From positions 8,651 through 72,650 of the forward strand of contig CAZVRT010000004.1 of assembly GCA_964630375.1 (NCBI GenBank): a stretch of 64,000 bases of DNA. Direction: 5' to 3'. The notes below the pieces were generated by a model that was given only the letters and a program-made list of their open reading frames with translations, did no database searches and had not been told where the DNA came from. The number at the start of each line of letters is the position of its first letter. Within the stretch, counting starts at the first letter, position 1. The translations under genes and the position numbers were made by a program. Below, one piece after another: positions 1,477 to 63,164 of the stretch. The DNA is from an uncultured Candidatus Saccharibacteria bacterium. GTDB lineage: Bacteria > Patescibacteriota > Minisyncoccia > Phycocordibacterales > JAACPR01.

Positions 1477-1983
1477 TCATTTCTCCAACTGTGGAACAGT
1501 TGTTGAGATGACTCGTCGACCCCATCTCTGAAAGACTCCAGAGACAGTATCGTTTTCAAGGTTTTCTAGCCGAAGATAATGATTCTTCGGGTAGACATGC
1601 CATTTTTCTCCGGATCCCGGAGGTTGGCTTACATTGATGTGAGGATGAATGGTCCCTTGGCTAATTCTGTCAGCCCCGTCAGCCCCGTAGACTCCGTGGA
1701 TGGAACCTTTGATGTAGGAGTTTTTGTTGAATTGTGTCCACTTAACTGTGTACACAAATCCGACTCCATTTCTCCGAGTGCTGAAGATTTTTGACTCGCC
1801 AGCTTTGAGTGTGAAAGGAGTTTCCTCCAACACCTCTACAGGTCCGTATTTCACGACAGGCTGGGTTTGTTTGATTCTTTCCTTTTCTTCGTTGAATGCT
1901 AAAGCGACGAAGATGGGGATCAAAACCACTGCAGCGATGCCAATGAAGCGCCCTCCTCTTTTTTTCTTCTTTTCTTCCTTCAT
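1477..1983 (-). CDS. Hypothetical secreted/membrane-anchored protein
   Basis: Lys-rich N-terminus followed by a TM helix (FIGIAAVVLIPIFVALAF). No recognisable domain. Confidence 0.5.
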   Translation of the reverse strand: MKEEKKKKRGGRFIGIAAVVLIPIFVALAFNEEKERIKQTQPVVKYGPVEVLEETPFTLKAGESKIFSTRRNGVGFVYTVKWTQFNKNSYIKGSIHGVYGADGADRISQGTIHPHINVSQPPGSGEKWHVYPKNHYLRLENLENDTVSGVFQRWGRRVISTTVPQLEK

Positions 1984-1999
1984 TAATTTTCAGGAGTGA

Positions 2000-3148
2000 T
2001 TATATGTTTCCGTCGGAGTCGACGACTGGTTTTGTGCCTTCAAGTCCGCGGTGAAGATTGACCTTCACATTTCCACCAGGGTTTGCTGTTCCGATGATCA
2101 ATTCCAAAGCCTTTTCGAAGGCTATGGTAGGCTCTTCGTTTTCTTTCGGTTTTGAGGCTTTAACAGCTTCTTGAGCCTGTTCAATCATCACATTGGTGAT
2201 GCCGCGAGCGTCAAGTGCGTTGTTGTAAGCTTGACTTGCGTTCAGGTTTGATACCTTGAACTCCTGAATGTGAATTCCATGACGAGTTTCCATATGATGG
2301 GCTTTGTTGTGGAATTCTTTGAATATATGACCGAAGGTTTTTGCAGGATCTGCAATTGCTTTCAAAAATGTAGTTTTTGAAGCAGCTGTTTCAACCATGT
2401 TCATCAAATAAGCACCCACGGTCTGTTCGACTTTTTTCTTGCGAAGTTCGTTGTTCGTGCCACCGGCTGCATAGGCATCAATGTCATTGATGTTGTAAGT
2501 CAAGATCATTTCTGCCGAACCTGTGACGTTTTGGAAGCTCAGTTGTTTGATTGGAATTTTCAAATTTTCCTGGCTTTCGGTATCGAACTCGCCTTGATTT
2601 TGGTCGAAGATGTTGATTATAGCCCAGATTGGACCGTGGTATTTAACAGTATTGTCCACCAGTCCTTGATCATCGGCAAGTTCGCGTTTCTTTGTGAAGA
2701 TTCGGTTGCTTGTACGGAAGACTGAGTTGGTGGTAGGGACGTAAAGTAGCTGTTGAGGCCACAAACGCCAAAACAGTATTGAACACAAAACCCAGATCGC
2801 ATCTATGTATTTGCTTTGAGGGAGTTTGCTTCCCATAAAAGTGATTAGGAATTCAAGACTGAACCCGATGAGCCACCCTAAAAAGGCAAAGAAGCTGATG
2901 TTGAACAATAAATTCCGAGAGTTTCGGATGTATTGTTCAGATGTGGTCATAGGTCTTGTGCTTGGTGTGTCCAAGACTTTGAAAACACTCATAAGGATTG
3001 CAATACCCAAAGGGGTAAGTACACCCATAATGAGATGAATGTCTCCGATATCTGCTTTCATTTCTTTCTTTATTTTTCGAGTTGAATTTTCGCGCATGGC
3101 CTTATGGCCTGTAAAAGAGCCACTTGGCTCAATACATTTTGAGCGCAA
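2000..3148 (-). CDS. Membrane protein, possibly SPFH/band-7-like (start codon uncertain; internal Met codons at residues 17 and 30)
   Basis: Two or three N-terminal TM helices, then a segment resembling SPFH (..GIHIQEFKVSNLNASQAYNNALDARGITNVMIEQAQEAVKA). The family assignment is weak. Confidence 0.4.
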   Translation of the reverse strand: MRSKCIEPSGSFTGHKAMRENSTRKIKKEMKADIGDIHLIMGVLTPLGIAILMSVFKVLDTPSTRPMTTSEQYIRNSRNLLFNISFFAFLGWLIGFSLEFLITFMGSKLPQSKYIDAIWVLCSILFWRLWPQQLLYVPTTNSVFRTSNRIFTKKRELADDQGLVDNTVKYHGPIWAIINIFDQNQGEFDTESQENLKIPIKQLSFQNVTGSAEMILTYNINDIDAYAAGGTNNELRKKKVEQTVGAYLMNMVETAASKTTFLKAIADPAKTFGHIFKEFHNKAHHMETRHGIHIQEFKVSNLNASQAYNNALDARGITNVMIEQAQEAVKASKPKENEEPTIAFEKALELIIGTANPGGNVKVNLHRGLEGTKPVVDSDGNI

Positions 3149-11079: not shown

Positions 11080-11784
11080 ATGAAAAAAGAAGATAAAATC
11101 TTTTGGTTGCAGGCGGGCGGTATTTTTTTAGGTTCAGTTTTTATTTTTGCTGCTTTGGGATTATTGCCGACTAATTTGATTCCGGGGGAATTTATGATTG
11201 CTAAAAACAATCAGAAAGATCGAGTTGATTATTCAAAAGGTGCTTCAATTAGTGATCCTAATTTATTACAGGAAGTTACATATGTTAGAGATAGAAATGG
11301 CAACATTTTACGAAGTCCTGATAACTCAGAAACAGCTCAATCAACTGTTCAAACAACACTTTCAAAACCTTCTAGAATCGTAGTGCCATCAGTTGGAATT
11401 GATACCGTTGTTTTGCAGCCTCAAAGTCCGGCTGTTGATGTTTTGGACCAAGCTTTACAAAGTGGTGCTGTTTATTATCCGGGTTCTGGTTTTATAGAGC
11501 AGGGAAATATGTTTATTTTTGGACATAGTAGCCGTTTGCCTGTTGTTGTAAATCAAGCTTATAAAGCCTTCAATGACATTGAAAAGACTAAAATTGGTGA
11601 TGAAATCTATATCTATTCTGGTGGCCAAAAATATACGTATGTTGTGGAAAGAGTCTATCATGCAGACTCAGAATCAGCTTTTATTGACTTAAGTCGAAGT
11701 GGGCGAAGGCTGACTATTTCAACTTGTGATTCTTTTGGAAAAAAGACAGATCGATGGGTGGTGGATGCGGTGTTTAAGGGGTAA
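11080..11784 (+). CDS. Sortase family transpeptidase
   Basis: N-terminal TM anchor; catalytic His in IFGHSS; TLxTC-type motif RLTISTCDSF with the conserved Cys; Arg near the C-terminus. Confidence 0.75.
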   Translation: MKKEDKIFWLQAGGIFLGSVFIFAALGLLPTNLIPGEFMIAKNNQKDRVDYSKGASISDPNLLQEVTYVRDRNGNILRSPDNSETAQSTVQTTLSKPSRIVVPSVGIDTVVLQPQSPAVDVLDQALQSGAVYYPGSGFIEQGNMFIFGHSSRLPVVVNQAYKAFNDIEKTKIGDEIYIYSGGQKYTYVVERVYHADSESAFIDLSRSGRRLTISTCDSFGKKTDRWVVDAVFKG

Positions 11785-11928: not shown

Positions 11929-12789
11929 ATGAGTAACACCACCACTCCGGCCCCTGCGGCCACCACCGAAGAGCAAATCGCTCAACTCCGCGAATCCGTC
12001 AACCAGATCGCGGAAGCGGTCGCTACCCAGAACAAGTCGAAAGGCTTCTCTCTCAAGCTGAAATGGGGAGTCGCGGCGGGCCTCGTGCTCGCAGTGTTCC
12101 TCGCTCTGTGGGTCTTTCGCCCCACCAGCACTCCGACGGCAACCGCTCCTGTGGCTGCCACGCCTGAAAACGAAGAGCTCAAGGCTCTTCGGGTCGAGCT
12201 GGAAACAGCAAAGGTTGAACGTGAGGTGGCAGCGAAAGCTGCTGCTGAACAGGAAGAAGCCCAGAAGAAAGCCCAAGAGTCCGATGCTCTCCGAAAGGAG
12301 ATGTCGAGCATGAGGGAAGACTTCATGGCAGCCATCGCGGCTGCCTCGGCTTCTTCCAAGGCGACGGTATCCGCTGCTACTTCGAGTACTCCTGTCCAAT
12401 TGGAGGCTTCCACGAATAACGGCAGCAGCATTGCTGCCCAAATCAACGAAGGCCTCCGTCTTCAGTATGGGGTGGCCCATGCACACACCGGGGAAAGCAC
12501 CCCGCCTCCTGGCCTAACTTGGCTGGATCTTGGCGGGGTTCAGATTCCTATTTTCAGGAATCCTCGTATGAACAATCAGTGGGCCTTTGTTACCGGAGAT
12601 TTGCTCGATGGTGTCAAGACCCCTCCTCGTTCTAACGAAGTCCCTCTGCCCGAAGGGCGGACATGGATTCCTTTGACCGCGGCCAACATTCCGCCGACAG
12701 GGGCTATCAACCCTGATGGGCAAAATATGTCCATCGACCGGGCTTTGATGGACGGGGCACTCATTTACGGAACTGTTGCTGTAAGGTAG
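11929..12789 (+). CDS. Hypothetical membrane protein encoded on a high-GC (~58%) island; Thr/Pro/Ala-rich N-terminus, one TM, an Ala/Glu-rich coiled-coil and a C-terminal globular region
   Basis: Long ORF with an ATG start; an AT-rich promoter-like TTGACT-N16-TAATAT lies in the left flank; no Shine-Dalgarno sequence; composition is abruptly different from the flanks. Confidence 0.55.
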   Translation: MSNTTTPAPAATTEEQIAQLRESVNQIAEAVATQNKSKGFSLKLKWGVAAGLVLAVFLALWVFRPTSTPTATAPVAATPENEELKALRVELETAKVEREVAAKAAAEQEEAQKKAQESDALRKEMSSMREDFMAAIAAASASSKATVSAATSSTPVQLEASTNNGSSIAAQINEGLRLQYGVAHAHTGESTPPPGLTWLDLGGVQIPIFRNPRMNNQWAFVTGDLLDGVKTPPRSNEVPLPEGRTWIPLTAANIPPTGAINPDGQNMSIDRALMDGALIYGTVAVR

Positions 12790-12919: not shown

Positions 12920-14116
12920 ATGAAAAACATTTTATTAGAAACAAGAATAAAAAATATTTTGAAAAACATAACATTTGTTTTTGCCTTGATATTTTTCCCT
13001 GTAATGTCTGTACAAGCATATTCTTCATACACGCCTGATTATTCATCATCTCCAAGTTATTCATATTCTTCATATACCCCTAGCTACTCTTCTGGAAGTA
13101 ATTACAACTACTCTTCATATACTCCTAGTTATTCTAACTACGATTACAATTATTCTTCATACACACCAAGTTATAACTATGGATATAATGACTACAACTA
13201 CTCTTCATATACTCCTAGTTATTCTAACTACGATTACAATTGTTCAGATTGTTACAGCTACGGTGGATATTCTGACTACGGAAGTTACGGATACAACGAC
13301 TACTATGATTACACACCTTCATACGGAGGATGTTCAGGATCAAACTGTGGAGGTTCAACACCTTCATCAGGAGGAGCGTTGTCAGCACTGGGCTTTAACC
13401 TAAACTACAGCGACAATGACACAACTATTATCGACAACAGTAAAACAGATAATAGTGTAAGAATTAATATTCGAAACTCTTCAACTACAAATACAACTAA
13501 TAATCATTGTAGTAATAACACTGGTGACAATAACTGTAATAATACAACTACTATCATCACTTCAAATGACCAAGATAAAGACTATGATCTAGATGTTATC
13601 TGTCGAGTTTCAAAAACTAGAATTCGTGAAGGTGACACAGTAACATATGAAGTAGAAATCCGAGGTGGAAAACCTTCATATAGAATCGAATGGTCAGGTG
13701 ATATTTCAGGAGATGATGAAGAAGAGCGAGTACGTTATAACCGAAGAGGATCATACAGAGTTTCTGTAGAAGTTAGAGATTCAAAAGGTAATCGAGCTTC
13801 TGACGAATGTTCAATTGTTGTTGTTGATAGAGAAGACGAAGATGACGACGATGATGATAGACGAGTTACTGTAACAACAAATACAGGACTAGGAACACCA
13901 ACAGGAAATCTAGCATCTTTGGAATCAGTATTCTTGTCACAAGTCCCATATACAGGACCTGGAGATGTTGCGAAAGTTCTAGGAGTTGTTGCATTGATTG
14001 CAATTTGGAGTACGGCTATCGCTATGTATTTGAAAAAGCAACGAGCTGTAAAATCAGTATCAAATAAAATTGCAGACTTTAAAGAACAAAATAAAAACGC
14101 AAATAAAATTGCTTAA
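12920..14116 (+). CDS. Repeat-rich secreted surface protein: signal peptide, Tyr/Ser-rich (S)SYTPSY(S) repeats, Asn/Thr-rich region, poly-Asp/Glu tract, and a C-terminal 'VPYTG' motif followed by a TM helix and a basic tail (candidate sortase substrate)
   Basis: The repeats are visible in the translation. C-terminus ...SQVPYTGPGDVAKVLGVVALIAIWSTAIAMYLKKQR... A 47-bp perfect direct DNA repeat at 13105..13151 and 13195..13241. Confidence 0.6.
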   Translation: MKNILLETRIKNILKNITFVFALIFFPVMSVQAYSSYTPDYSSSPSYSYSSYTPSYSSGSNYNYSSYTPSYSNYDYNYSSYTPSYNYGYNDYNYSSYTPSYSNYDYNCSDCYSYGGYSDYGSYGYNDYYDYTPSYGGCSGSNCGGSTPSSGGALSALGFNLNYSDNDTTIIDNSKTDNSVRINIRNSSTTNTTNNHCSNNTGDNNCNNTTTIITSNDQDKDYDLDVICRVSKTRIREGDTVTYEVEIRGGKPSYRIEWSGDISGDDEEERVRYNRRGSYRVSVEVRDSKGNRASDECSIVVVDREDEDDDDDDRRVTVTTNTGLGTPTGNLASLESVFLSQVPYTGPGDVAKVLGVVALIAIWSTAIAMYLKKQRAVKSVSNKIADFKEQNKNANKIA

Positions 14117-21274: not shown

Positions 21275-22102
21275 CTATTCTTTTCGCACCGCTTTATTCC
21301 AAAAATTAAACTTGTCATATTTTTCCGCAAATGGACCAAGTGTTTCTTTCCAATCAGAGACAGGAGTCATGATAGTGTTTTTGATTGTGTGCAAATCCGT
21401 AAAGCCGTGAAATAAGTCATCTTCCTTTGTCGTTTGCTCTATATTTTTAAAATCATGCTCAAAAGGTTCTTCTCCTAAAAATTTATAAATATCATCAATA
21501 ACTTTCTTAGGGTTTGTAGTTAATTCCTCAAAGAAAACAAAATGCATCTTTTTCCCGAAACCTCTTCTTAGAGCGTCTTTTATCGTGTTGTATGCGCTAC
21601 CAACAGGTTGATTGGCTTTCATAAACACCTCGCACCTACCTTCAACAGTTTGAAATTCAACCGGAAAAGCTTTTTCTTGACTGATTTGATGGCCTTTTTT
21701 AGTTTCTTTTCTGTATAGCTTTTCAAAACTAGCCAAAATATCTCTGATGTCTCTTACTGTTATCAATATTTTCACATCATTTTCCACCAAAGATTCTAAA
21801 AGTTCAAATTGTCCAGGCCAACCTCGACATTTATCAAAAATCACAGGCTTCTCTACGTCAGAATAAAAAGACTGAAGCATTGATTTTAATACTCTTAGTT
21901 TTGCAGGTTCATTTCTGACAGCTTTAAATTCTTGAATATTGTTCCAAGTGTTTCGTGTGTTTATTATCATTTGTAAAACACCTGAAGTAGCTGTCGCATG
22001 AAAGCGAGGATTTTGATTTAGAATATTGCAAAGCAAAGTAGAACCGCTTCGTGGTAATCCGGAGATAAAATAAAATTTTTTTGGATTTATATTATTTTTC
22101 AT
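21275..22102 (-). CDS. PAPS-dependent sulfotransferase family protein (Stf0/Sulfotransfer_3-like)
   Basis: 5'-PSB motif FISGLPRSGSTLL; 3'-PB-like ITVRDIRDILASFEKLY. The likely start is the internal Met (MKNNINP). Confidence 0.65.
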   Translation of the reverse strand: MKNNINPKKFYFISGLPRSGSTLLCNILNQNPRFHATATSGVLQMIINTRNTWNNIQEFKAVRNEPAKLRVLKSMLQSFYSDVEKPVIFDKCRGWPGQFELLESLVENDVKILITVRDIRDILASFEKLYRKETKKGHQISQEKAFPVEFQTVEGRCEVFMKANQPVGSAYNTIKDALRRGFGKKMHFVFFEELTTNPKKVIDDIYKFLGEEPFEHDFKNIEQTTKEDDLFHGFTDLHTIKNTIMTPVSDWKETLGPFAEKYDKFNFWNKAVRKE

Positions 22103-22185
22103 AAATAATTTTTTAATAATTTGTATTTGCAAACTGTGTATAAATACTGCGGGGGTGGGGGGTAACTCAATGTATAATACACTTC

Positions 22186-23904
22186 ATGAATAAATACATC
22201 AAACTAACAGGTGTTGGCCTTATGCTGTACCTTGCAATCATTATCAAAGAAACACCCGTAGCATATGCAGCTATAATCACAGATTGTTCTACCGCCTTGG
22301 ATCAAGAAAATGAAACTTATGAGCTATCCGCCAACACATCAAACAACTGTGTAATTGCCGCCAACAACATTACCTTGGATGGGAAGGGGTTTGAATTGAA
22401 TGGATACATTCAGACTATGAGCAATTCTTTTGAAGTTAAAAATATAACAATTAATTCATCTTACTATTCTGTGTATGCGACTGGCATAGGAGCTGATGCT
22501 ATATTTACAGATGTGAATATGTCCGGGTACACTTATGGGATATTTGGAGATATTTCTATTTCAGGTTCAACAATCAACGGAAATTTACATGAAAATAGAT
22601 CCTTAATCTCTCAGGGTGGCATTAATATTGTTGATTCGGTTGTTAAATTGTTTAAAGTATCAGGTGATGGTGTGAATATTACAAACTCTACAGTGGGTAA
22701 TGGGTATGAAGAAAGTCCATCATATGGTTATACTTACAATTCAAGTGTTTTGGCAAATGAAATATCAATTAATGATTCCACCATTAATGCATATATTCGA
22801 AATGATTACTATACTAATGGTACATGGCTTGCTGATACTATATTAATCACCAATTCTGCTGTAGTTGGAGGTTTAAGGGCTAAAATAACAGAGATTAACG
22901 ACTCTTCGGTCTCGGGATATATTAGTATTAGGAGTGGTGATTACTATAGTAGCGACGGTAGTTTAAAAATAATTGGTTCTACTATTACAGGATTAAAAGT
23001 TGGGGGATTGATAGAATCCGTAAATACTCCTTTAATAATAACAAACTCTACTGTTTCTTTTGTTGGAGGGTATGGTATATGGGCTACAAACAATAATAAT
23101 ATTTATTTAACTGATTCATTAGTTTCAGCTAAAATTAGTAATGACATAGATAATGTCCACATCCTCAACACCCCACCCTCCCTAACAGTAACCCCTCTAT
23201 CCCTAGAAATAGACGAAGATGAAGTATTCAATCCACAAACAGGTACAGTAACAGCCTTTGATCAAATAGGACCAGATCTTGTAGATGTATCAGACAATAT
23301 ACAAGTAACAGGTACTGTAGAGGTAACACCAGGGGAATATGAACTGATATACAGCATAGAAGATCAACCGCTAATATATACAGTTAAAGGAGAAGAGGTA
23401 ATTGTAGGTCCTAACACTTCAACAACCACCAGAACCATCACAAGACTATCTGGAGGTAGTAATAACAACGAAGAACCCCAACCTTCTGAAGAACCATCTC
23501 GTCGTTCTAGCTCAAGAAGACAAGTACCACAATCTCTATCTTCTAACACCCAACTAACACAAATAATCACACAATACGCACAATTCCTTAAAACCCTACT
23601 ATCCATAGGCATAGAACTACCAAAACAGGTAACAGATATACTAAACACAATACCTAACACCACAACACCTAATACAACCACTACAACATTCACTAGAGAC
23701 TTAACACTAGGATCTACAGGTGAAGATGTATCTACCTTACAACAACTACTAATCTCTAAAGGTTACTCTATACCACAAGGTGCTACAGGATACTTTGGTA
23801 CACAAACACAACAGGCAGTGGCACAGTATCAGAGGGATAATGGGATAGAGCCTGCGGAGGGGTGGTTTGGACCTGTTACAAGAGATGTGGTGAATAGTTT
23901 TTAG
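22186..23904 (+). CDS. Large secreted protein: signal peptide, Asn/Ser/Thr-rich parallel-beta-helix-like repeats, Ser/Arg linker, C-terminal peptidoglycan-binding (PG_binding_1-like) domain
   Basis: N-terminal signal peptide; repeated (I/V)TNSTV-type motifs; C-terminus TGEDVSTLQQLLISKGYSIPQGATGYFGTQTQQAVAQYQRDNGIEPAEGWFGPVT. Confidence 0.6.
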   Translation: MNKYIKLTGVGLMLYLAIIIKETPVAYAAIITDCSTALDQENETYELSANTSNNCVIAANNITLDGKGFELNGYIQTMSNSFEVKNITINSSYYSVYATGIGADAIFTDVNMSGYTYGIFGDISISGSTINGNLHENRSLISQGGINIVDSVVKLFKVSGDGVNITNSTVGNGYEESPSYGYTYNSSVLANEISINDSTINAYIRNDYYTNGTWLADTILITNSAVVGGLRAKITEINDSSVSGYISIRSGDYYSSDGSLKIIGSTITGLKVGGLIESVNTPLIITNSTVSFVGGYGIWATNNNNIYLTDSLVSAKISNDIDNVHILNTPPSLTVTPLSLEIDEDEVFNPQTGTVTAFDQIGPDLVDVSDNIQVTGTVEVTPGEYELIYSIEDQPLIYTVKGEEVIVGPNTSTTTRTITRLSGGSNNNEEPQPSEEPSRRSSSRRQVPQSLSSNTQLTQIITQYAQFLKTLLSIGIELPKQVTDILNTIPNTTTPNTTTTTFTRDLTLGSTGEDVSTLQQLLISKGYSIPQGATGYFGTQTQQAVAQYQRDNGIEPAEGWFGPVTRDVVNSF

Positions 23905-23945: not shown

Positions 23946-24188
23946 ATGTCTACAAAATCAACAATAATTGGTCTAAAAGAATTGAGAGAAAATACCGAAA
24001 CCTATATTAAGCGTGTTGAAAAAGGTGAGTCTATTACTATTATTCGTCGTTCTGTTCCTATTTTTAGACTAACACCAGTAGATAGCGAAGAATCAAATTG
24101 GGAACCCATAGCAGACTTCACCCTAATAAATAAAAATGGTATTTCAGCTAAAGATATTTTGTCTAAGTTAAACAAAATTGATGGATAA
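23946..24188 (+). CDS. Phd/YefM-family antitoxin
   Basis: IIGLKELRENTETYIKRVEKGESITIIRRSVPIFRLTPVD matches the Phd/YefM N-terminal pattern. Overlaps the downstream toxin gene by 11 nt. Confidence 0.6.
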   Translation: MSTKSTIIGLKELRENTETYIKRVEKGESITIIRRSVPIFRLTPVDSEESNWEPIADFTLINKNGISAKDILSKLNKIDG

Positions 24189-24438
24189 AATATCAAAATT
24201 TCTAAAAAAATTATCAAAGAAAGAACGCAAACAAATTCAAAAAATTTTGTTATTAATTTTGGAAAATAAAACAAAAGATTTAGATATAAATAAATTAAAA
24301 GGTTCAGATAATATATACAGGATCAGGGCTGGTAGTATAAGAATTATTTTTTCTAAATCTATAAATACAAATAATCAAGCAGAAATTATGATTTTGAGAA
24401 TAGATAGAAGAAATGAAAAAACTTACAAAGACTTTTAA
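24178..24438 (+). CDS. RelE/ParE-family toxin
   Basis: ..KFLKKLSKKERKQIQKIL...KLKGSDNIYRIRAGSIRIIFS... matches the RelE/ParE pattern (l..l....R.RvGdyRiiy). Confidence 0.6.
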   Translation: MMDKISKFLKKLSKKERKQIQKILLLILENKTKDLDINKLKGSDNIYRIRAGSIRIIFSKSINTNNQAEIMILRIDRRNEKTYKDF

Positions 24439-24748: not shown

Positions 24749-25657
24749 ATGGCAAATAGGCACCTTGCAAGATCGATTGTTCTTCAAACATTGTTTGAGT
24801 GGGACTTTAATGGAAACAATAATAACGAGGCAGAAAATATTCTGTTAAGAAACATTGAGGAATTCGCTCCAGGTGTGTCTGATATTCATTTTATGCAAAC
24901 TCTTTTGCGTGGTGTTATTGAAAAGAAACCAGAAATTGATTCTATTATTGAGAAGGCTGCGCCAGATTGGCCGCTAGAAAAAATAGCAACTGTTGATAGA
25001 AACATTTTAAGAATGGGTCTTTTTGAGCTTTTGTTTGTAGACCGATCAGAAGTTCCTTCAAAGGTGGCTATTAATGAAGCTATTGAATTGGGAAAAGCTT
25101 TTGGAGGTGATACTTCTGGAAAATTTATCAACGGAGTTTTGGGTGCTGTTTATAAAGAACTTGGTGAGCCTGGAAAAGAAGATGAATCTCCAAAAAAGAA
25201 AAAAGATATTCCTTTTGAAGAAATGCCTATTGAAGAAAAAGTTGGAGCTGTTGTTTTCGCAGAAGATAGTGGAGAAATTTATTTTGGTTTAGTTCACGAT
25301 GTTTTTGGTCACTGGACTCTTTCTAAAGGTGGTTTACAAGAGGGAGAAGATGATGAAGCTGGTTTGAAAAGAGTTATAAAAGAAGAAATGAATTTGGATT
25401 TGAAAGGTATAAATTCTTTGCTTGGAGAAACTGAATATGTTGCTAATCATCCGGAAAAAGGAAAACATCGAAAACAAGTTAGATATTATCTCGTAGAATC
25501 TGATTACGGAGATATTAAATTGCAAGAAGGAAAAAGCGGTTTAGATGCTGCACAGTGGTTTAAAGTAAAGGATGTTGCAGATTTAAATTTTTATAATGAT
25601 ATCGTGCCGTTAATAACGCAATCAATCACAACTTTGATTCAAAAAAACAACGCATAA
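24749..25657 (+). CDS. nusB: NusB (transcription antitermination factor) fused to a C-terminal NUDIX-hydrolase-like domain
   Basis: N-terminal ~140 aa ARSIVLQTLFEWDF...VAINEAIELGKAFGGDTSGKFINGVLGAV is NusB. The C-terminal GGLQEGEDDEAGLKRVIKEEMNL is a (degenerate) Nudix box. Confidence 0.7.
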   Translation: MANRHLARSIVLQTLFEWDFNGNNNNEAENILLRNIEEFAPGVSDIHFMQTLLRGVIEKKPEIDSIIEKAAPDWPLEKIATVDRNILRMGLFELLFVDRSEVPSKVAINEAIELGKAFGGDTSGKFINGVLGAVYKELGEPGKEDESPKKKKDIPFEEMPIEEKVGAVVFAEDSGEIYFGLVHDVFGHWTLSKGGLQEGEDDEAGLKRVIKEEMNLDLKGINSLLGETEYVANHPEKGKHRKQVRYYLVESDYGDIKLQEGKSGLDAAQWFKVKDVADLNFYNDIVPLITQSITTLIQKNNA

Positions 25658-31708: not shown

Positions 31709-32116
31709 ATGTTAAAGATTAGATTACAAAGAACAGGGCGAAAACACGAACCAACTTTCCGTGTTGTTTTAACAGATTCAAAAAATGGTCCAAAGAGCGG
31801 TAAATTTATTGAAATTCTAGGTTCTTACGACGCTAGAAGAAACCAAGATACACGTTTGAAGAAAGACAGAATTCAATACTGGATTGGACAAGGTGCACAA
31901 GTTTCTGACACTGTTCACAATCTTTTGATTACTCACGAAGTTATTGCTGGAGAAAAGAAAAATGTTCTTCCACAAAAAACTCCTATTCGAAAAGAGCAAC
32001 CTGCTGAAGAAGTTGCAGCACCTGCGACTGAAACACCAACAGAAGCACCAGCTGAAACTCCTGCAGAAGAAGTTAATTTAGAAGCAACACCTGCTGAAGA
32101 ACCAACTTCAGAATAG
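31709..32116 (+). CDS. rpsP: 30S ribosomal protein S16 with a ~55-aa Pro/Ala/Glu/Thr-rich C-terminal extension
   Basis: MLKIRLQRTGRKHEPTFRVVLTDS... The track ORF starts further upstream, overlapping rnr; the ATG at 31709 is the homology-supported start. Confidence 0.85.
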   Translation: MLKIRLQRTGRKHEPTFRVVLTDSKNGPKSGKFIEILGSYDARRNQDTRLKKDRIQYWIGQGAQVSDTVHNLLITHEVIAGEKKNVLPQKTPIRKEQPAEEVAAPATETPTEAPAETPAEEVNLEATPAEEPTSE

Positions 32117-43389: not shown

Positions 43390-45207
43390 ATGAAAAACAA
43401 AATCAAAAATAAAATCACCGCACTTATACTTTTACTTACCTTAACAATCCTTTCTTACTCACCTTTAATAATCAAACCTCAAACTGCAGAAGCAGCTGGG
43501 ACTTGGGTGTGGGAGGAGTTGACTGGGGCTGGACAAAGAAACTGGATGGGCATTACCTCATCAGATGATGGAATGAATCTGGCCGCTATTACTCAAAACG
43601 GATATATCTACACTTCGACAGATGGTGGTGATAATTGGGTTGAAAGGACTGGTGCTGGTTCAAGAGAGTGGATGGATATTGCTTCATCGGCTGATGGTTC
43701 TAAATTATTTGCTGTTCCACAATATGAACTGGTTATATGGATTTCAACTAACTTTGGTTTAACGTGGGACTCTGTGCTGCTTGATAATAATCCAGAGATA
43801 GAGTCTTTGGATCTTCAGTCTATCGCAGTTTCTGCTAATGGAGAAAAAATTGTAGTTATAAGTTCTGAGACTTATGGCGGAGGTTCGTATATTTCAAATA
43901 ACGCAGGTGAATCTTGGTCGGAAATAGAGGATTTTGATTACGATTATTTAGAACTTACTCCTTCAGTTTCTATGTCGTCAGACGGAATGAAAATAATAGC
44001 TGCTGCGCATCCTGATGGAGACTCTTCTAGTCATAGAGGGTATTTTATAACAACTAATGGTGGGGAGAGTTGGAATTATTCTGTGTCAAATGATCCGTAT
44101 CCGCACTATATACGAGCAAAATATTCAAAAGATGGTAATACGATATTGATGGCGGGACCAGAGGTTGGTTATGTTAGGGTGTCCGACAATAACGGAATCT
44201 CATGGAGAGATGTTGAAGGAGAAGTGTTTTGTGTGGAGGATGAGTGGGAGAATGAGACTTGTTATAATGATATAATTGGAGCTGATATTGCTTTATCATC
44301 AAATGCTCAAATACAAGTATTACTTTTGAACGAAGTCGGTCTTAGAGATGTACTAAATCCAGAACTGGATTTTTTAATTTCAACAGATGGAGGTCTGACT
44401 TTTTCAGCACATGAGACTGGATATCATTATCCTTATAATTCCAACATGTCTCAAAACATGATAACAATCTCTGCCCCCGGCACCACCATATACGCTGCAG
44501 AACCCTCAGGTCACATCTGGAAAGGAACATACATCCCCGAAACCTTCACCCTCTCCTTCAACACCCAAGGAGCATCTCCCATACCAGACATAACAGAAGA
44601 TGAAGGAACCTCTGTAACACTCCCACCCTCACCAACATACGAAGGATACACCTTCTTAAACTGGAACACACAAGCAGATGGTGAAGGAGACTCATACCAA
44701 CCAGGTGACTCATTCACACTAAACTCTGATACAACACTGTATGCTATATGGGAGGAAAACCCTATTGAAGAACAACCAGAAGAACAAACCCCCTCAGAAG
44801 AACCCTCACGTCGTTCTTCTTCACGTCGCTCAGTCCCTTCTAGCCTCCAAGCTAAAAACAACACCCTAAACTCTATTGTACTCCAATACAAAGACTCCCT
44901 AACAACACTACACACTCTAGGTATCATATCTCTCCCACAAAACATACTAGATATACTAAACATACAACCAACCAATACAACAAATACAACCTTCCTAAGA
45001 GACCTAACCCTAGGTGACACAGGTACAGATGTATCTACCTTGCAATCTATCCTAATATCTAAAGGATACTCTATACCAGCAGGACCAACAGGATACTTTG
45101 GTGAACAGACAAGACAAGCGGTGGCACAGTTCCAGAGAGACAACAACATTACACCTGCAGAGGGGTGGTTTGGGGTGGTGACTAGGGGGAAGATGAGGGG
45201 GTTTTAA
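43390..45207 (+). CDS. Secreted BNR-repeat (sialidase/Ycf48-like beta-propeller) protein with a Listeria-Bacteroides 'Flg_new' repeat domain and a C-terminal peptidoglycan-binding domain
   Basis: Signal peptide; BNR motifs STDGGDNW, TNGGESW, SDNNGISW, STDGGLTF; EGYTFLNWNTQADGEGDSYQPGDSFTLNSDTTLYAIWE; C-terminus TGTDVSTLQSILISKGYSIPAGPTGYFGEQTRQAVAQFQRDN. Confidence 0.6.
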   Translation: MKNKIKNKITALILLLTLTILSYSPLIIKPQTAEAAGTWVWEELTGAGQRNWMGITSSDDGMNLAAITQNGYIYTSTDGGDNWVERTGAGSREWMDIASSADGSKLFAVPQYELVIWISTNFGLTWDSVLLDNNPEIESLDLQSIAVSANGEKIVVISSETYGGGSYISNNAGESWSEIEDFDYDYLELTPSVSMSSDGMKIIAAAHPDGDSSSHRGYFITTNGGESWNYSVSNDPYPHYIRAKYSKDGNTILMAGPEVGYVRVSDNNGISWRDVEGEVFCVEDEWENETCYNDIIGADIALSSNAQIQVLLLNEVGLRDVLNPELDFLISTDGGLTFSAHETGYHYPYNSNMSQNMITISAPGTTIYAAEPSGHIWKGTYIPETFTLSFNTQGASPIPDITEDEGTSVTLPPSPTYEGYTFLNWNTQADGEGDSYQPGDSFTLNSDTTLYAIWEENPIEEQPEEQTPSEEPSRRSSSRRSVPSSLQAKNNTLNSIVLQYKDSLTTLHTLGIISLPQNILDILNIQPTNTTNTTFLRDLTLGDTGTDVSTLQSILISKGYSIPAGPTGYFGEQTRQAVAQFQRDNNITPAEGWFGVVTRGKMRGF

Positions 45208-55148: not shown

Positions 55149-55613
55149 TCAGTGCGGTGGAGTCCCGAGCCTTTTCAGTCCGAGTGAATTGAGCCAGTTG
55201 TCGATGTGTTGCAGGATTTTGTTTCCGGTATTTCGAGTTCTTCGCCAACTTGAATCAACGTCGTTTGCATCTCCGTAGTACACCACATCTCTGACTTTTG
55301 GTCTCGTGTTGTAAGCTCCAAGGCAATGCTTCACAGAGTTTAATACACGGGTGATTGTTCCTTTTTCTGAGCCCATCTCTTCCAGATATCCTTGAAGCAT
55401 GCGATATGCATCACCATCCATAATTTTGGATTCCAAAACTTCTGGATCAGCCTCGCCAAATTTGTACGGTTCTTGAGAGACGAAAACTTCTCTCTTGGGT
55501 CTGAATGAAATTGAAACGCAGATTTCTTGCTTACGGGGAATCAAGTCGTGTTTCGAGCAGTAATGTTCTACCATTTCTTCAATGGCTCGCAGATGTTTTT
55601 GGTCTATATTCAT
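55149..55613 (-). CDS. Hypothetical protein in a locally GC-elevated patch
   Basis: Long ORF with a likely start at the internal Met (MNIDQKHLRAI). No recognisable domain. Confidence 0.4.
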   Translation of the reverse strand: MNIDQKHLRAIEEMVEHYCSKHDLIPRKQEICVSISFRPKREVFVSQEPYKFGEADPEVLESKIMDGDAYRMLQGYLEEMGSEKGTITRVLNSVKHCLGAYNTRPKVRDVVYYGDANDVDSSWRRTRNTGNKILQHIDNWLNSLGLKRLGTPPH

Positions 55614-55732
55614 AGTAAAGATTTCTTCAATACAATAAAACAAAAAATAAAAATGTCAAATAAAATTTGCTAGAATATTTTCTAAATCATGATAAGGTTC
55701 ATTTGAAAACAAGAACCCAAAAACATTAAATA

Positions 55733-56542
55733 ATGAAACCAAGACCCTATATCGGAATTACAGATTTCCCTACGTGGGAAACAACTCAAAGAATGATTGA
55801 TTGTTTCAAGAAAAATCAATCTGGAATACCTCACGCTTTGCACATCGGAATAATGTGCAGCTACAAAAGCTTGAATGGGCATGCAACTAAATACGACGAT
55901 GTTTGGCCTGAGTCAAAATATCTTTCAAACATTTTTCCAGTAACTGGTAGCGAGCCCGTGTTCAATTGTCTGCATTATGCCGACTATGGAACCACGCCGT
56001 ACAAAGAAACTGTAAAAACGATTGTAAAAGGATTGAATGCCTGCGGCGCTCAGTTGCACGGTCTTCAGCTGGACATGATCTGGCCCGACTTTGCAGCTAT
56101 TTGGTCAGCCTTGAGGTTGAGTTTTAACAATTCTCCGTTAAAAGTGATTCTGCAAATCAATTCTCGGGCTTTCGAAATGATGGACAACGATCCTAAAAAA
56201 GTCGTTGAAAAACTTCGCGAGTATCGAGATCTGGGACTTCTCAACTATGTTTTGCTGGATAAAAGCATGGGTAAAGGACAGCCTTTGGACGCACGGTTCA
56301 TGTTGCCATTTCTTCGGGAAATTCAGGAGCAGTTTCCGGATGTTGGGTTGGTTGTTGCTGGAGGACTTGGTCCTGATACTCTGGATTTGCTTTGTCCAAT
56401 TTTGGAGGAGTTTCCGGGTATAAGTATTGATGCGCAGGGAAGACTTCGCCCGAGCTTTGATTCCACGAAACCGATTGATTGGAATATGGCGGAAAGGTAT
56501 GTGAAAAATGCAACTGATCTTTTCCGAAAATATATTCGCTGA
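55733..56542 (+). CDS. TIM-barrel protein resembling phosphoribosylanthranilate isomerase (TrpF-like), divergent
   Basis: ..NACGAQLHGLQLD.. (compare LDAVQLHGDE) and ..LVVAGGLGPDTL...GISIDAQG.. (compare ILAGGLNPENV...GVDVSSGVE). Confidence 0.4.
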   Translation: MKPRPYIGITDFPTWETTQRMIDCFKKNQSGIPHALHIGIMCSYKSLNGHATKYDDVWPESKYLSNIFPVTGSEPVFNCLHYADYGTTPYKETVKTIVKGLNACGAQLHGLQLDMIWPDFAAIWSALRLSFNNSPLKVILQINSRAFEMMDNDPKKVVEKLREYRDLGLLNYVLLDKSMGKGQPLDARFMLPFLREIQEQFPDVGLVVAGGLGPDTLDLLCPILEEFPGISIDAQGRLRPSFDSTKPIDWNMAERYVKNATDLFRKYIR

Positions 56543-59110: not shown

Positions 59111-59842
59111 ATGAAAGTTTGTGTTGTAACACTCCATAAATCTGCTTCCATGTTCTTGCATCGATATTTCCAAGCTTATGCCAATTCCAAAAATTTGCCT
59201 TATTTTTCAGCAAATTCTGAGCCAGCAAATGAAGATGGCTGGAAACATCTCATCAATGGAGATTATGTAGTTTGCCCAGTTCGTATAAAAGACAGCCTTG
59301 ATTTATTACCGTCAGATGCTCAGTACATAATTCACTTCCGTAACCCAATTGATATTTTGATATCGGAGTATTTTTCTTTTGGTTGGACTCATCCTGTTAT
59401 ATCAGAAAAGCAAAAAGTTCGTAGAGAAAGTATTCAAAGTCAGACTATTGACGAGTATTGTATTGCGCATGCTCAGTCTTTACATAAAAGATATGGTCTT
59501 CTGATTTCCTTATATCAATCATCTTCTCAAGTGATCCTTTCTGATTATTCTTTGATGAGGCAAAGTTTTAAAAAATGGAATAAATCTATACTTGAAAGTA
59601 TTGAGCAAGAAGATAGTCAGAAAATATCTGAATTTTTATATAGTCAATTTAAAGGAGATTTTAGGTTTTTTAGGAATTTGTTTAGAAATGTAAACTCACA
59701 TCGTCGAGACGGACGAGACAATCAAGCTCGTGTTTATCTTAAGCCAGAAACTGTTGGGGTTTTGGAAAGTGAGCTTCAGGATATTATTGGATTTTATAAT
59801 GACATGCATCAGAGATTGCAAAAAAAATATGCCAAAACCTGA
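59111..59842 (+). CDS. Sulfotransferase-like protein (Stf0/Sulfotransfer_3-like), tentative
   Basis: N-terminal VVTLHKSASMFL (P-loop-like 5'-PSB position) and FRNPIDILISEY (3'-PB-like). The start is taken at the internal Met (MKVCVV) to avoid overlapping the divergent gene. Confidence 0.4.
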   Translation: MKVCVVTLHKSASMFLHRYFQAYANSKNLPYFSANSEPANEDGWKHLINGDYVVCPVRIKDSLDLLPSDAQYIIHFRNPIDILISEYFSFGWTHPVISEKQKVRRESIQSQTIDEYCIAHAQSLHKRYGLLISLYQSSSQVILSDYSLMRQSFKKWNKSILESIEQEDSQKISEFLYSQFKGDFRFFRNLFRNVNSHRRDGRDNQARVYLKPETVGVLESELQDIIGFYNDMHQRLQKKYAKT

Positions 59843-60713
59843 TTTCTTTATAATCGGTGCGCCAAAGTGCGGAACAACTTCGCTCAGTAAATATTTAAGG
59901 TCGCACCCAAATGTTTGTATGTCTGCATTAAAAGAGCCAAATTATTTTGCATTCGATTTGCAGTTACCTGGACCAAATTCTCTTGAAGAGTATTTGGGTC
60001 TGTTTTCAAATTGTTCTGGCGATTCATTGTGGGGAGAAGCATCAACTCATTATTTGTGTTCTCAGGTAGCTGTGCCGGAAATTTTAAAACTTAATCCCAA
60101 TGCCAAGTTTATTGTTATGCTTCGTAATCCAGTTGAGATGGCGGAATCTTTATTTTTTGAGGCACGACACCACTTGGCTGAAAAAGAACGCAAATTTGAA
60201 AGAGCATGGAAAGAACGTGAAAGCAGGTCTCTTACTATAAGATACGATTATGTGTGTGATGTTGGAAATCAGTTGGAGAGGTTATACAACACTGTTTCTT
60301 CTAGGGACTTAGTACATGTTATTCATTTTGATAATTTTATAAAAAATACTGCTGTTGAATATCGCAAGGTTCTTAATTTTTTAAATTTGCCTGATGATGG
60401 TAAAATAGACTTCACTCAGTTCAATAAAAGAAAAGATATGAAAAGTCGTTTGGTCGGAGACATTTTAAGAGCTTTAGAGTCAAAGAGATTAAGGTATTAT
60501 TCTAAGAAGGTAAAAGATATTTTTGGCTTATCCCAGTGGCCGCTTCTGGGTTCTGTATGTAAGCGCATAAAAGTTTACAACCTGAAACGCACAGATGGTG
60601 TTACAACAATTCCAGATTATTTACAAATCGAATTATATGAACACTTTTTGCCGACAGTTAACAAAGTAAAGAATCTGACAAGCATAGATTTATATGGCAG
60701 AAAAAGAAATTAA
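59829..60713 (+). CDS. PAPS-dependent sulfotransferase (Sulfotransfer_1-like)
   Basis: 5'-PSB motif DFFIIGAPKCGTTSL; 3'-PB region VMLRNPVEMAESLF. 14-nt overlap with the upstream gene. Confidence 0.75.
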   Translation: MPKPDFFIIGAPKCGTTSLSKYLRSHPNVCMSALKEPNYFAFDLQLPGPNSLEEYLGLFSNCSGDSLWGEASTHYLCSQVAVPEILKLNPNAKFIVMLRNPVEMAESLFFEARHHLAEKERKFERAWKERESRSLTIRYDYVCDVGNQLERLYNTVSSRDLVHVIHFDNFIKNTAVEYRKVLNFLNLPDDGKIDFTQFNKRKDMKSRLVGDILRALESKRLRYYSKKVKDIFGLSQWPLLGSVCKRIKVYNLKRTDGVTTIPDYLQIELYEHFLPTVNKVKNLTSIDLYGRKRN

Positions 60714-61617
60714 AAAACCAAACTTTTTTATAATCGGCGCACCAAAATGTGGCACCACTTCTTTGAGTGAATATTTGCGTTTACATCCTGATATTTATTT
60801 TTCACAACCCAAAGAACCGATGTACTTTTCGTCGGATATACCAAATACCCGAGTTTATAGATATACATCATTGGATGACTATTTACAAAAATGTTTTGAC
60901 GGATCGTCAGGATATAAGTTTGTTGGTGAAGGATCAACCAGATATCTTACTTCAGAAGTTGCTGTTCCTGAGATTTTAAAGATGGACCCAAGCGCAAAGT
61001 TTATAGTTATGCTTCGCAATCCGGTCTATTTATGCCACTCACTTTATTATCAGTATCTGAAAGACGATAATGAGGATGCCGAAAGTTTTGAAAAAGCTTG
61101 GCGTCTTCAAGATGAAAGAAACAAAGGAAATGATTTACCAAAGAGAGTTGAATGTCCTGCTTTATTGCAATATAGACAAAGATGTATGCTCGGGGAGCAG
61201 TTAGAGAGATTGTTTACACAAGTGTCAAATCCTAAACAGGTACTTATTATATCATTTAATGATTTTATCTCTGATACGGAAGTCGTCTATAAAAAGGTGC
61301 TGAATTTTTTGGGTGCCGATTATGATGGACAGCAAGAATTTCCAATTCATAATGAATACGGCAAAATTAGGAGTAAATTCTTTGAAAGAGTTTTGTCTAT
61401 TCCTAAGCATTCTTTTTTACGACCAATTTCTAAAAAGCTAAAGAAGTTTTTGAATATTCAACACTGGGCGTTTTTTGTTTGGATGAATAAAATGAATTAC
61501 AGAAAAATAAAGAAGGAGCCGATGAGTAAAGAATTGCGTGAAGAACTAACCGAATATTTTCGTTCAGACGTAGAGAAAGTAAAACGTCTAACGGGAATAG
61601 ATTTATATGAAAATTAG
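60694..61617 (+). CDS. PAPS-dependent sulfotransferase (Sulfotransfer_1-like), paralog of the upstream gene
   Basis: NFFIIGAPKCGTTSLSEYL; VMLRNPVYLCHSLYY. 20-nt overlap with the upstream gene. Confidence 0.75.
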   Translation: MAEKEIKKPNFFIIGAPKCGTTSLSEYLRLHPDIYFSQPKEPMYFSSDIPNTRVYRYTSLDDYLQKCFDGSSGYKFVGEGSTRYLTSEVAVPEILKMDPSAKFIVMLRNPVYLCHSLYYQYLKDDNEDAESFEKAWRLQDERNKGNDLPKRVECPALLQYRQRCMLGEQLERLFTQVSNPKQVLIISFNDFISDTEVVYKKVLNFLGADYDGQQEFPIHNEYGKIRSKFFERVLSIPKHSFLRPISKKLKKFLNIQHWAFFVWMNKMNYRKIKKEPMSKELREELTEYFRSDVEKVKRLTGIDLYEN

Positions 61618-62515
61618 CGTCATAACAACATCTTTTAATCATGGTCAATTTTTGGAAGCGACATTACGTTCTGTGGGGGCGCAGACTTATCGGAATGTGG
61701 AACATGTTGTGATTGATGGAGGTTCTTCGGATAATACGATTGAGATTTTAGAAAAATATCAGTCGCAATATAATTTGAAATGGATTTCAGAGCTGGACAA
61801 TGGTCAGACTCATGCTTTGAACAAAGGGTTGGCGATGATTAGCGGAGACATTGTTGTGTGGCTAAATTCTGATGACGTTTTTCTTTATAAAGACACTCTT
61901 GAACAAGTTGCTCGAGTTTTTGAATCAGGAGAAACTGATGTTTTGATGGGTGATATGGCTTTTTTGGATAAAGAGGGAAGTATTATTCAGTTTTTCGGAT
62001 ATTCAAAGTTTTCATATCAAAAATTTTTGAGTGGTTTGCGAAGTGTTGGTCAGCCTTCTGTTTTTATTAAAAGCGATATTCTCAAGAAGAATAAATTTAG
62101 AGAAGATTTACATTACGCTTTTGATTTTGAATTTTGGTTGAGAATTTTGAGAGGTGATATAAAAATTAAATGCACACGTTTTGTTTTATCAGGATCAAGA
62201 ATGTATCCGGGAACTAAAAGTTCTGACGAAAGTAAATTGTCCGAAGAAAAGAATCAAATATTTCAAGAGTGTAATTTAAATCCACGACCTTTCTCAAGGC
62301 TCGACAGAAAAATTGACAATTTTATTTCACTGAAAGTTAGGGGATTGTGGCTGCTTATTAAGCACAGATATTTTTTACGCTCACCAATGACTTCGGATTT
62401 GGTTAAATATAAAAAATTTCCAATGGATATTATTTATCAGATTTTCCGAAAAATGCGCTCAAACTACGAGCAGTATTGGAGTAAATATTTTCCAACCAGT
62501 TTTTGGAGTGATTAG
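61607..62515 (+). CDS. Family 2 glycosyltransferase
   Basis: MKISVITTSFNHGQFLEATLRSVGAQTY; DxD LNSDDVF. 11-nt overlap with the upstream gene. Confidence 0.8.
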   Translation: MKISVITTSFNHGQFLEATLRSVGAQTYRNVEHVVIDGGSSDNTIEILEKYQSQYNLKWISELDNGQTHALNKGLAMISGDIVVWLNSDDVFLYKDTLEQVARVFESGETDVLMGDMAFLDKEGSIIQFFGYSKFSYQKFLSGLRSVGQPSVFIKSDILKKNKFREDLHYAFDFEFWLRILRGDIKIKCTRFVLSGSRMYPGTKSSDESKLSEEKNQIFQECNLNPRPFSRLDRKIDNFISLKVRGLWLLIKHRYFLRSPMTSDLVKYKKFPMDIIYQIFRKMRSNYEQYWSKYFPTSFWSD

Positions 62516-63163: not shown

Positions 63164-63164
63164 G

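Follow-up and report, generated by a model that had tools for sequence, protein, structure and literature searches.

Two genes in the 64-kb stretch of bacterial DNA analysed here (called the window, at its full length) raise the question of whether a protein module and a nucleotide composition belong together as a single cassette. Gene A (22186..23904, + strand, 572 aa) and gene B (43390..45207, + strand, 605 aa) each contain an open reading frame (ORF) for a predicted secreted surface protein, and the original prediction held that these otherwise unrelated proteins share a C-terminal module of ~150 aa, carried on A/C-rich DNA and acquired or shuffled as a cell-wall-targeting unit. Our data imply that the two features have to be kept apart. 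The proteins do share a C-terminal module, which is also found behind other heads in related proteins, while the A/C-rich composition is a real shift in synonymous codon usage that does not belong to the module as such.

In a BLASTP comparison of A with B there is a single significant high-scoring segment pair (HSP), which joins residues 452–572 of A to residues 488–605 of B at E=4e-40 (61% identity). No other HSP is better than E=0.2, and we therefore consider the N-terminal 430–460 residues of the two proteins to be unrelated. With MAFFT, the similarity extends over ~145 aa (A 426–572 vs B 461–605) at 66% identity with an invariant PSEEPSRRSSSRR, placing the start of the shared module at about 23461–23482 in A and 44770–44791 in B. 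The PG_binding_1 domain (PF01471), with which the module had been predicted to end, is recognised at the extreme C-terminus of both proteins (53.5 bits in A and 47.6 bits in B, against a cut-off of 23), so that both the sharing of the module and the nature of its last domain were correctly foreseen. The DNA of the last 250 bp is 74% identical between the genes, which indicates that the modules are old paralogs and not the result of a recent duplication. A search for further copies had been suggested as a check, and tblastn and blastn searches found none in the window beyond A and B.

The module is more elaborate than a linker joined to a peptidoglycan (PG)-binding domain. In an AlphaFold2 (AF2) model of the A module, for which an alignment of eight homologous tails served as input, residues 1–27 (an acidic stretch followed by SRRSSSRR) are disordered, three helices (27–38, 40–49 and 55–63) follow with a predicted local distance difference test (pLDDT) score of about 75, a Thr/Asn spacer (64–77) is again disordered, and residues 78–147 form a confident three-helix bundle (pLDDT 85–93). 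Within gene A, all on the + strand, these parts correspond to the acidic and Arg/Ser-rich linker NNNEEPQPSEEPSRRSSSRRQVPQSL (23461..23541, pLDDT <50), a three-helix subdomain that is conserved in the eight-sequence alignment (aa 453–488, 23542..23649), the Thr/Asn-rich spacer (23650..23694, pLDDT <50 at module residues 66–73) and the PG_binding_1 bundle (23695..23901, Pfam match at aa 511–567). By alignment, B has the linker at 44746..44850, the helical subdomain with the spacer at 44851..44991 and PG_binding_1 at 44992..45204 (aa 544–602), also on the + strand. Foldseek superimposes the A bundle on solved PG-binding domains (5tv7, SleB 6tci, CtpB 4c2e, phiKZ gp144 3bkh and AP3 endolysin 5nm7; prob 1.00) with a root-mean-square deviation of 1.0–2.0 Å over about 70 residues, and a PDB profile search with the module retrieves 3bkh (E=3.9e-7). 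The preceding three-helix unit has no PDB fold match of its own in Foldseek, and any role proposed for it would be a guess; it is likewise a guess that the Arg/Ser motif serves as a processing site or as a partner of anionic wall polymers.

How widely the module is distributed was assessed with a profile of the two tails, which gave 19,948 PG_binding_1-type matches among 1.84 billion representative proteins. Only about 6 of the best 150 of these matches also cover the linker and the helix. The full module is carried by P0212/P0284 (an ortholog of A, locus L040), by P0279 (with an SBBP-type propeller head), by P0249 (with another beta-rich head) and by the fragment P0136, the Arg/Ser motif having the variants SRRRSGSR / PRRRSGSK in P0212 and P0279. 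A search with B also retrieved P0007, which combines a BNR propeller with an immunoglobulin (Ig) domain and ends in a variant of the module whose acidic linker lacks the Arg/Ser motif and is followed by helix, spacer and PG_binding_1. As the module is found behind different heads, with at least five head architectures, we interpret the tail as a cassette. A scan of genome contigs returned generic PG domains only.

Comparison with the closest relatives reveals a mosaic. The gene for P0212/P0284 adjoins a sulfotransferase gene (L040 3023–3877) whose product is 66% identical to that of the sulfotransferase gene next to gene A (21275–22132, − strand), and this conserved synteny identifies P0212/P0284 and A as true orthologs. 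An alignment of the two proteins is possible only for the first ~70 residues and from residue ~285 onwards, and the A tail is no more diverged from the ortholog than the A head, so that there is no sign of an imported tail in A and the presumed acquisition finds no support there. When B is compared with P0004, an NCBI protein encoded on a 133-kb contig, the signal region is 88% identical, the propeller 35%, the Flg_new domain 99%, the linker 100%, helix plus spacer 90% and the PG domain 47%. The PG domain of B is in fact nearer to that of A (75%) than to that of P0004 (47%), and in P0136 a B-type linker and helix (98%) are preceded by another kind of domain and followed by a P0004-type PG domain. 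These mosaic identities imply block-wise recombination, in which the ends are conserved and the head is hypervariable. Shuffling of a cell-wall cassette, as proposed, is thus supported at the protein level, although the unit exchanged between B and P0004 consists of Flg_new, linker and helix rather than of linker and PG domain. The 99–100% identical block common to B and P0004 may have arisen by intragenomic gene conversion or by transfer between genomes. Silent cassettes or repeats flanking the heads were not found in the window, and no integrase or transposase adjoins gene A or B among the neighbouring ORFs.

The second feature, the composition, is equally clear. The most A+C-rich 300-bp segments of the 64 kb are located in the two tails (0.69–0.71, z about 4), and when the third-position A+C content (AC3) is computed across all genes, the top 26 segments all come from the tails of A and B. 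Change-point analysis delimits the tracts to 23155..23823 in A and 44452..45159 in B (both on the + strand), with AC3 values for head, tract and 3' end of 0.43, 0.74 and about 0.15 in A, and of 0.38, 0.77 and 0.00 in B. For an amino-acid control, the expected AC3 was calculated from the protein sequence and the window's own codon table. The expectation is 0.50, against an observed 0.74 in A (z 7.5) and 0.78 in B (z 9.4), while z does not exceed 3.96 across 181 background segments. The heads of A and B, with z of −0.1 and −2.6, follow the codon usage of the host. The description of the last ~700 bp of each gene as A/C-rich, in distinction from the upstream parts, therefore holds and is not accounted for by amino-acid content, which is refuted as a cause since the excess survives conditioning on the protein sequence.

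The tracts do not coincide with the module. They begin ~100 codons upstream of it, within non-homologous domains: in A at the boundary between beta-solenoid and Ig-like domain, and in B within the last propeller blade, about 30 codons before Flg_new. From there they cover the whole stalk-plus-anchor part and end 13–25 codons before the stop codon, where the usage flips to G/T-ending codons. The Ig-like stalk of A (aa 332–420, 23179..23445, + strand), identified by a weak match to PF16403 and by AF2 strands, is not homologous to the corresponding part of B (19% identity) and lies within the tract (AC3 0.73 observed vs 0.48 expected, z 5.5). Its counterpart in position, the Flg_new domain of B (Listeria-Bacteroides repeat, aa 386–452, 44545..44745, + strand; PF09479 59.5 bits vs a gathering score of 27), has the highest AC3 of the whole window (0.83–0.88). 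Even so, these two non-homologous parts have a common codon dialect (rho 0.73). Leu is encoded by CTA in 25 of 39 tail codons as against 3 of 49 head codons; ATA, GTA, ACA/ACC, CCA/CCC and NAC are favoured, G-ending codons are nearly missing, and TCT, GGT, GAT and CGT are still used. Relative to background, T is reduced at the third position by about 0.18 and G by about 0.08, while C is raised by about 0.15 and A by about 0.12. Codon positions 1 and 2 are also shifted in the tails, which are rich in Thr, Pro, Gln and Asn.

The last 45–80 nt of both genes are, conversely, rich in G-runs, with the codons AGG, GGG and GAG, of which AGG and GGG are rare in this genome. In A, this short 3' end (23824..23904, + strand) contains GGG, GGG and GGGG and has an AC3 of about 0.15–0.16 vs 0.50 expected (z −3.8); in B (GAGGGGTGGTTTGGGGTGGTGACTAGGGGGAAGATGAGGGGG, 45160..45207, + strand) AC3 is 0.0 (z −4.6), and four of the 65 runs of at least four G in the window lie at 45162–45197. 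Among the G-rich ends (45160–45207, 23843–23866 and, at the P0007 locus L028, 7050–7100), GAGGGGTGGTTTGG is common to A and B. Such an end could represent a G-quadruplex, a Chi-like or a stability element, and on paper it pairs with the C-runs with which the A/C tract begins; no sign of a function was found. Two antisense ORFs within the tails, 23364..23693 (− strand, 109 aa) and 44511..45149 (− strand, 212 aa), were rejected as real genes; both are in one relative frame, in which the depletion of third-position T removes antisense stop codons, and they look like by-products. As a further observation, the tetranucleotide CTAG occurs 81 times in the whole window as against about 210 expected, and clusters in 12920..14116 and in the two tails.

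Among homologs the bias is patchy. An amino-acid-controlled A/C excess (z 3–6 per 100 codons) is present in the 3' parts of the genes for P0007 (L028), P0279 (L031) and P0249 (L032), and in the distant A ortholog P0124 (L034, a locus with 50% GC) the Ig-like domain has raw AC3 values, calculated without amino-acid control, of 0.80 and 0.64 with 0.52 C at the third position. The bias is missing from P0039 (L038), is restricted to a single Ig block in P0014 (L039), and the closer A ortholog in L040, which carries the same module, has no A/C excess. This last case shows that the bias is dispensable for the module and eliminates it as a trait of the module itself; in the same way, L038 and most of L039 argue against the idea that secreted PG-anchored proteins in general carry it at their 3' ends, which was rejected. 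The Ig block that L028 (5980–6280) and L039 (4990–5300) have in common is 93–95% identical in protein sequence within propeller proteins that are otherwise 30–60% identical, and yet 32–65% of the codons for identical residues differ, with AC3 at 0.65–0.78 in both and A<->C differences enriched (12/45 vs 9/86). Since the synonymous sites have turned over and AC3 has been kept, the bias in this block must have been maintained and is no relic of a recent transfer, and the high protein identity despite codon turnover points to very strong purifying selection on the Ig stalk.

Taken together, the misalignment of tracts and module, the common dialect of non-homologous parts and the unbiased module in L040 lead us to conclude that the A/C composition is not the signature of the cassette. 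This part of the original prediction has to be given up, and its start coordinate of 23150 is a compositional boundary, whereas the shared protein module begins some 300 bp later.

Of several possible explanations for the dialect, we rank first, though tentatively and with considerable doubt, that the DNA of the A/C tracts has had a history of its own. Stalk and anchor blocks would have circulated by recombination or transfer among paralogs and related genomes, bringing the dialect of this pool, or else of some donor, into genes whose heads remain host-typical. That the heads fit the host codon table and the tails do not is what such a process would leave behind, and the tails use ATA, CTA and NCC, which the S16, RpoB and RpoC genes of the host avoid. 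The 99–100% block common to B, P0004 and P0136 inside proteins otherwise 35–47% identical, the clustering in the tails of the CTAG tetranucleotide avoided elsewhere in the genome, the correlation of the tail dialect with that of other compositionally atypical genes of the window (rho 0.36–0.57) and the occurrence of the bias in L028, L031, L032 and L034 and its absence from L040 and L038 are all in line with it. Against these stand the A tail, which is as similar to the L040 ortholog as the A head is, the Ig block of L028 and L039, where a bias kept through codon turnover is no fresh relic, and the lack of any donor with such a dialect and of any phage or plasmid match to the tails beyond generic PG domains.

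We rank second, and regard as rather improbable, a selection at the level of the nucleic acid that keeps G and T from synonymous sites, resulting in a non-self-pairing, C-rich and G-poor (rut-like) mRNA segment in which palindromes and start and stop codons are scarce as well, and which is closed by the G-rich 3' end. The persistence of the bias over saturated synonymous divergence (L028/L039 and A/L034) argues for such a selection, as does the frequency of A<->C exchanges, which are the commonest mismatch between the A and B modules (18/51) and are enriched in the L028/L039 block. The replacement of the Leu codons TTA and CTT by CTA extends the avoidance of T to a synonymous first position, and the flip to G/T-ending, G-run-rich AGG and GGG codons at the 3' ends of A and B is sharp, with L028 likewise ending in G-runs. 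Palindromic 6-mers are 3-fold rarer in the tails than in the window as a whole, a deficit that composition alone explains. The predicted minimum free energies of the tails do not differ from those of shuffled sequences (z −0.76 and −0.23), so that a selected RNA structure, including one in which the C-rich start would pair with the G-rich end, was rejected, and no Rfam family matches. The avoidance of T is not uniform, as TCT, GGT, GAT and CGT stay common, and the orthologous tail in L040 is without bias. No single k-mer is over-represented in the tails, and tandem repeats amount to three short, weak 9-bp arrays (scores 31–39) in the B tail and none in the A tail. A diversity-generating retroelement was also looked for: the Pfam-scanned ORFs of the window include no reverse transcriptase, there is no further DNA copy of the tails, and A/B mismatches are not adenine-specific.

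In a further reading, to which we assign a lower likelihood still, the surface-protein genes of Patescibacteria would draw on a pool of stalk/anchor cassettes that recombine, and the A/C-only dialect with its G-run-rich end would be a nucleic-acid feature actively maintained in that pool. The dialect may then limit self-complementarity, palindromic restriction sites and internal start and stop signals, thereby easing the exchange of blocks between genes and between genomes, and the compositional boundaries would mark the units of recombination.

Little can be said in favour of a local strand-asymmetric mutation bias, for example by antisense transcription that exposes the template strand to deamination, so that the coding strand would undergo G>A and T>C changes. 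The third-position shifts, with T and G down and C and A up, do resemble the strand-asymmetric deamination composition of vertebrate mitochondrial genes. However, sites with T at the third position in L040 correspond to A (17) as often as to C (12) in gene A, transversions being as frequent as transitions; the changes are codon-specific, with TCT and CGT rising; antisense promoter-like sites are not above shuffle expectation; and the genes downstream of A and B are co-oriented with them.

We give even less credence to translational selection, by which A/C-ending codons would be optimal for very highly expressed surface proteins. The bias is confined to the 3' 40% of each gene and is uncorrelated (rho −0.04) with the codon preferences of RpoB/C, IF-2, ClpB, HSP20, RpoD and LepA, while the S16 gene (AC3 0.54 vs 0.55 expected) uses ATT in 7 of 7 and GTT in 8 of 8 cases, opposite to the ATA and GTA of the tails, and tandem T4SS-pilin-like genes have no A/C excess. 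The preference of NAC over NAT, the retention of CGT, TCT and GGT and the paucity of G-ending codons do recall classical optimal sets, and a preprint on Ca. Paceibacteria (bioRxiv 10.1101/2023.08.25.554742) reports secreted proteins with PG-binding (PGBD) and Ig-like domains among the top-expressed genes. It is extremely unlikely that the shift is a by-product of a protein rich in Thr, Pro, Gln and Asn (whose codons are A/C-rich, and codon positions 1 and 2 shift too) or, in a metagenome-type assembly, a chimera, as z is still 7.5 and 9.4 when conditioned on amino acids and the bias is strongest in the globular Flg_new domain, and as neither reading frame is broken, each tail is flanked on both sides by host-like sequence, and independent samples contain the same architecture (P0212/P0284 and P0004).

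For the proteins themselves we favour a model, which we consider probable, in which A and B are Sec-exported surface proteins with a non-covalent PG anchor belonging to a recombining family of tails. It combines the observed domain content, fold, module sharing, mosaic identities and codon anomaly with a number of predicted steps. The N-terminus of A (MNKYIK, LTGVGLMLYLAIII and AYA/A) and that of B (MKNKIKNK, ITALILLLTLTIL and AEA/A) are signal-like, with Kyte-Doolittle maxima of 2.0 and 2.3, respectively, within residues 1–60 and values not above 1.4 beyond. Neither protein has an LPXTG motif, a C-terminal hydrophobic or transmembrane segment or, by Kyte-Doolittle analysis, any hydrophobic segment besides the N-terminus, and both end in PG_binding_1. 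The full-length AF2 model of A, built with orthologs, is of lower confidence (pLDDT 62) and consists of a helix (4–21), a beta-solenoid of short strands (25–330), a beta-sandwich (332–420), a disordered segment (421–453), helices (454–486) and the PG bundle (513–570), PG_binding_1 being the sole significant Pfam match. The product of B, which is identical to the NCBI protein P0003 from a 92-kb contig, has a propeller assigned by PF15902 (Sortilin-Vps10, 49.8 bits vs a gathering score of 33) and PF02012 (BNR, 34.6 vs 27), followed by Flg_new and PG_binding_1.

Both proteins would thus follow a single plan of a variable head (beta-solenoid in A, BNR propeller in B), a stalk (Ig-like in A, Flg_new in B) and a common C-terminal anchor, itself ordered as a disordered linker, first acidic and then Arg/Ser-rich, the three-helix unit, the Thr/Asn spacer and the PG_binding_1 bundle. 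After export, the bundle would most probably attach to peptidoglycan non-covalently and so retain the protein at the wall, with linker and stalk presumably holding the head outward, and the anchor would be one of a small family of tails whose blocks are recombined between genes for surface proteins. The producer is probably a low-GC bacterium with a small genome, belonging to the Patescibacteria (candidate phyla radiation). A MurJ gene directly downstream of B, and a sortase with a putative sortase substrate elsewhere in the window, lead us to expect a PG wall. The model is also in line with the high expression reported for secreted PG-binding and Ig-like proteins of Ca. Paceibacteria (10.1101/2023.08.25.554742).

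Two points limit this model: export, PG binding and orientation are predictions from sequence, and the host assignment is indirect, being based on few homolog names, gene content and low GC. There is also an alternative that we consider unlikely, namely that the PG_binding_1 tail grips the wall of a host or partner cell rather than that of the producer and serves the adhesion of an epibiont. Orthologs differ strongly in their heads (35% identity), which would suit surfaces made for interaction, no other anchor (neither LPXTG nor a C-terminal transmembrane segment) would be left after cleavage of the signal peptide, and secreted PGBD proteins of Ca. Paceibacteria are read as host-adhesion factors in the same preprint (10.1101/2023.08.25.554742). 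With the PG domain on the host, however, nothing would tie the protein to its producer, and the producer makes peptidoglycan itself, the MurJ gene lying directly 3' of B and an FtsW gene adjoining that of P0007. In Gram-positive surface proteins, C-terminal wall-binding modules normally bind the producer's own wall. We thus retain the anchoring of A and B to the producer's own wall as the preferred model.

Some neighbouring genes deserve mention. The sortase is encoded at 11080..11784 (from the Pfam and ORF scan of the window) and adjoined by the candidate substrate (12920..14116), which is secreted, of low complexity and built with SSYTPSY-type repeats, and whose C-terminus (VPYTGPG, then a hydrophobic segment and KKQR) resembles a sortase signal. 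This gene holds 9 of the 81 CTAG sites of the window; its A/C excess is mild (z about 3.5) and its dialect differs from that of the tails (rho about 0.1). There are four sulfotransferase genes in the 64 kb, the one adjoining gene A and three others at 59730–60713, 60694–61617 and 62459–63211, which hints that a surface glycan or the protein itself may be sulfated. Directly 3' of gene A (23946–24438) is a pair resembling a Phd/YefM-like antitoxin and a ParE-like toxin, both with Pfam matches below the gathering score.

Three regions of the window (11929–12789, 1477–3148 and 55149–56542) have atypical codons rich in third-position C and G and are essentially without Pfam matches, and may represent foreign islands; gene 11929..12789 has two long antisense ORFs. 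Four tandem genes for small membrane proteins (32–1370), of which 757..1122 matches T4SS_pilin (PF18895, 28.7 bits), lie where the window is richest in G/T and are without A/C codon excess. A single ORF at 24749–25657 fuses a NusB domain (PF01029, 123.7 bits) to a NUDIX hydrolase domain (PF00293, 40.8 bits). Ribosomal protein S16 (31742–32116) carries a C-terminal extension rich in Pro, Ala, Glu and Thr (PAEEVAAPATETPTEAPAETPAEE...), and its listed ORF start at 31523, further upstream, is probably spurious.

At the protein level, the results describe ordinary domain shuffling of a PG_binding_1 wall anchor, and they define a compact module of linker, three-helix unit and PG_binding_1 that can be used for spotting surface-displayed proteins in poorly annotated Patescibacteria genomes. 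In these proteins the ends are conserved, and the heads are either exchanged or fast-evolving. Less ordinary is the codon anomaly, as it is sharply bounded within genes, common to non-homologous domains, present in some orthologs only and opposite to the ribosomal-protein (S16) dialect of the same genome. If selection were to maintain the dialect, it would be a clear constraint at the nucleic-acid level inside a coding sequence; if it were the signature of a donor, it would be a tracer of module traffic among uncultivated bacteria.

Conserved ends around a hypervariable middle, as in B and P0004 (88/35/99–100/47%) or in A and P0212 (ends only), are the pattern of cassette-based surface proteins such as pilE/pilS and vlsE; with neither silent cassettes nor head-flanking repeats in the window, this is a resemblance only. 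The PGBD/Ig-like proteins of Ca. Paceibacteria (10.1101/2023.08.25.554742) are likewise secreted and combine PG-binding with Ig-like domains, a likeness in domain content, and the passages of that preprint consulted here describe neither a linker-helix module nor a codon anomaly. The closest subfamily of PG domains (LISKGYSIPAGATGYFG..., up to 74% identity, also preceded by a helix) belongs to ~660-aa metagenomic surface proteins (L005–L025; P0126–P0128) with a signal peptide and a coiled coil (ELQAQIAALLAQI...), which differ from A and B in that the PG_binding_1 module is N-terminal and lacks the Arg/Ser linker, and that their genes have no A/C codon excess. The same three-helix bundle is found in cell-wall enzymes (3bkh, 6tci, 4c2e, 5tv7 from C. 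difficile and 1lbu, the Zn DD-peptidase of Streptomyces), where it targets a PG hydrolase or protease, whereas in A and B it forms the C-terminus of large, non-enzymatic-looking beta-solenoid or propeller proteins and, unlike in the enzymes, is preceded by the conserved acidic and Arg/Ser linker and by an extra three-helix unit without a PDB match. Non-covalent C-terminal anchors such as LysM, GW, CWB2, SLH and choline-binding repeats are reused among unrelated Gram-positive proteins. The anchor of A and B differs from these in its fold, in being present as a single copy instead of tandem repeats, and in that its binding is predicted, and it follows the same logic, in which a signal peptide, a variable passenger and a linker are combined with a reused C-terminal wall module.

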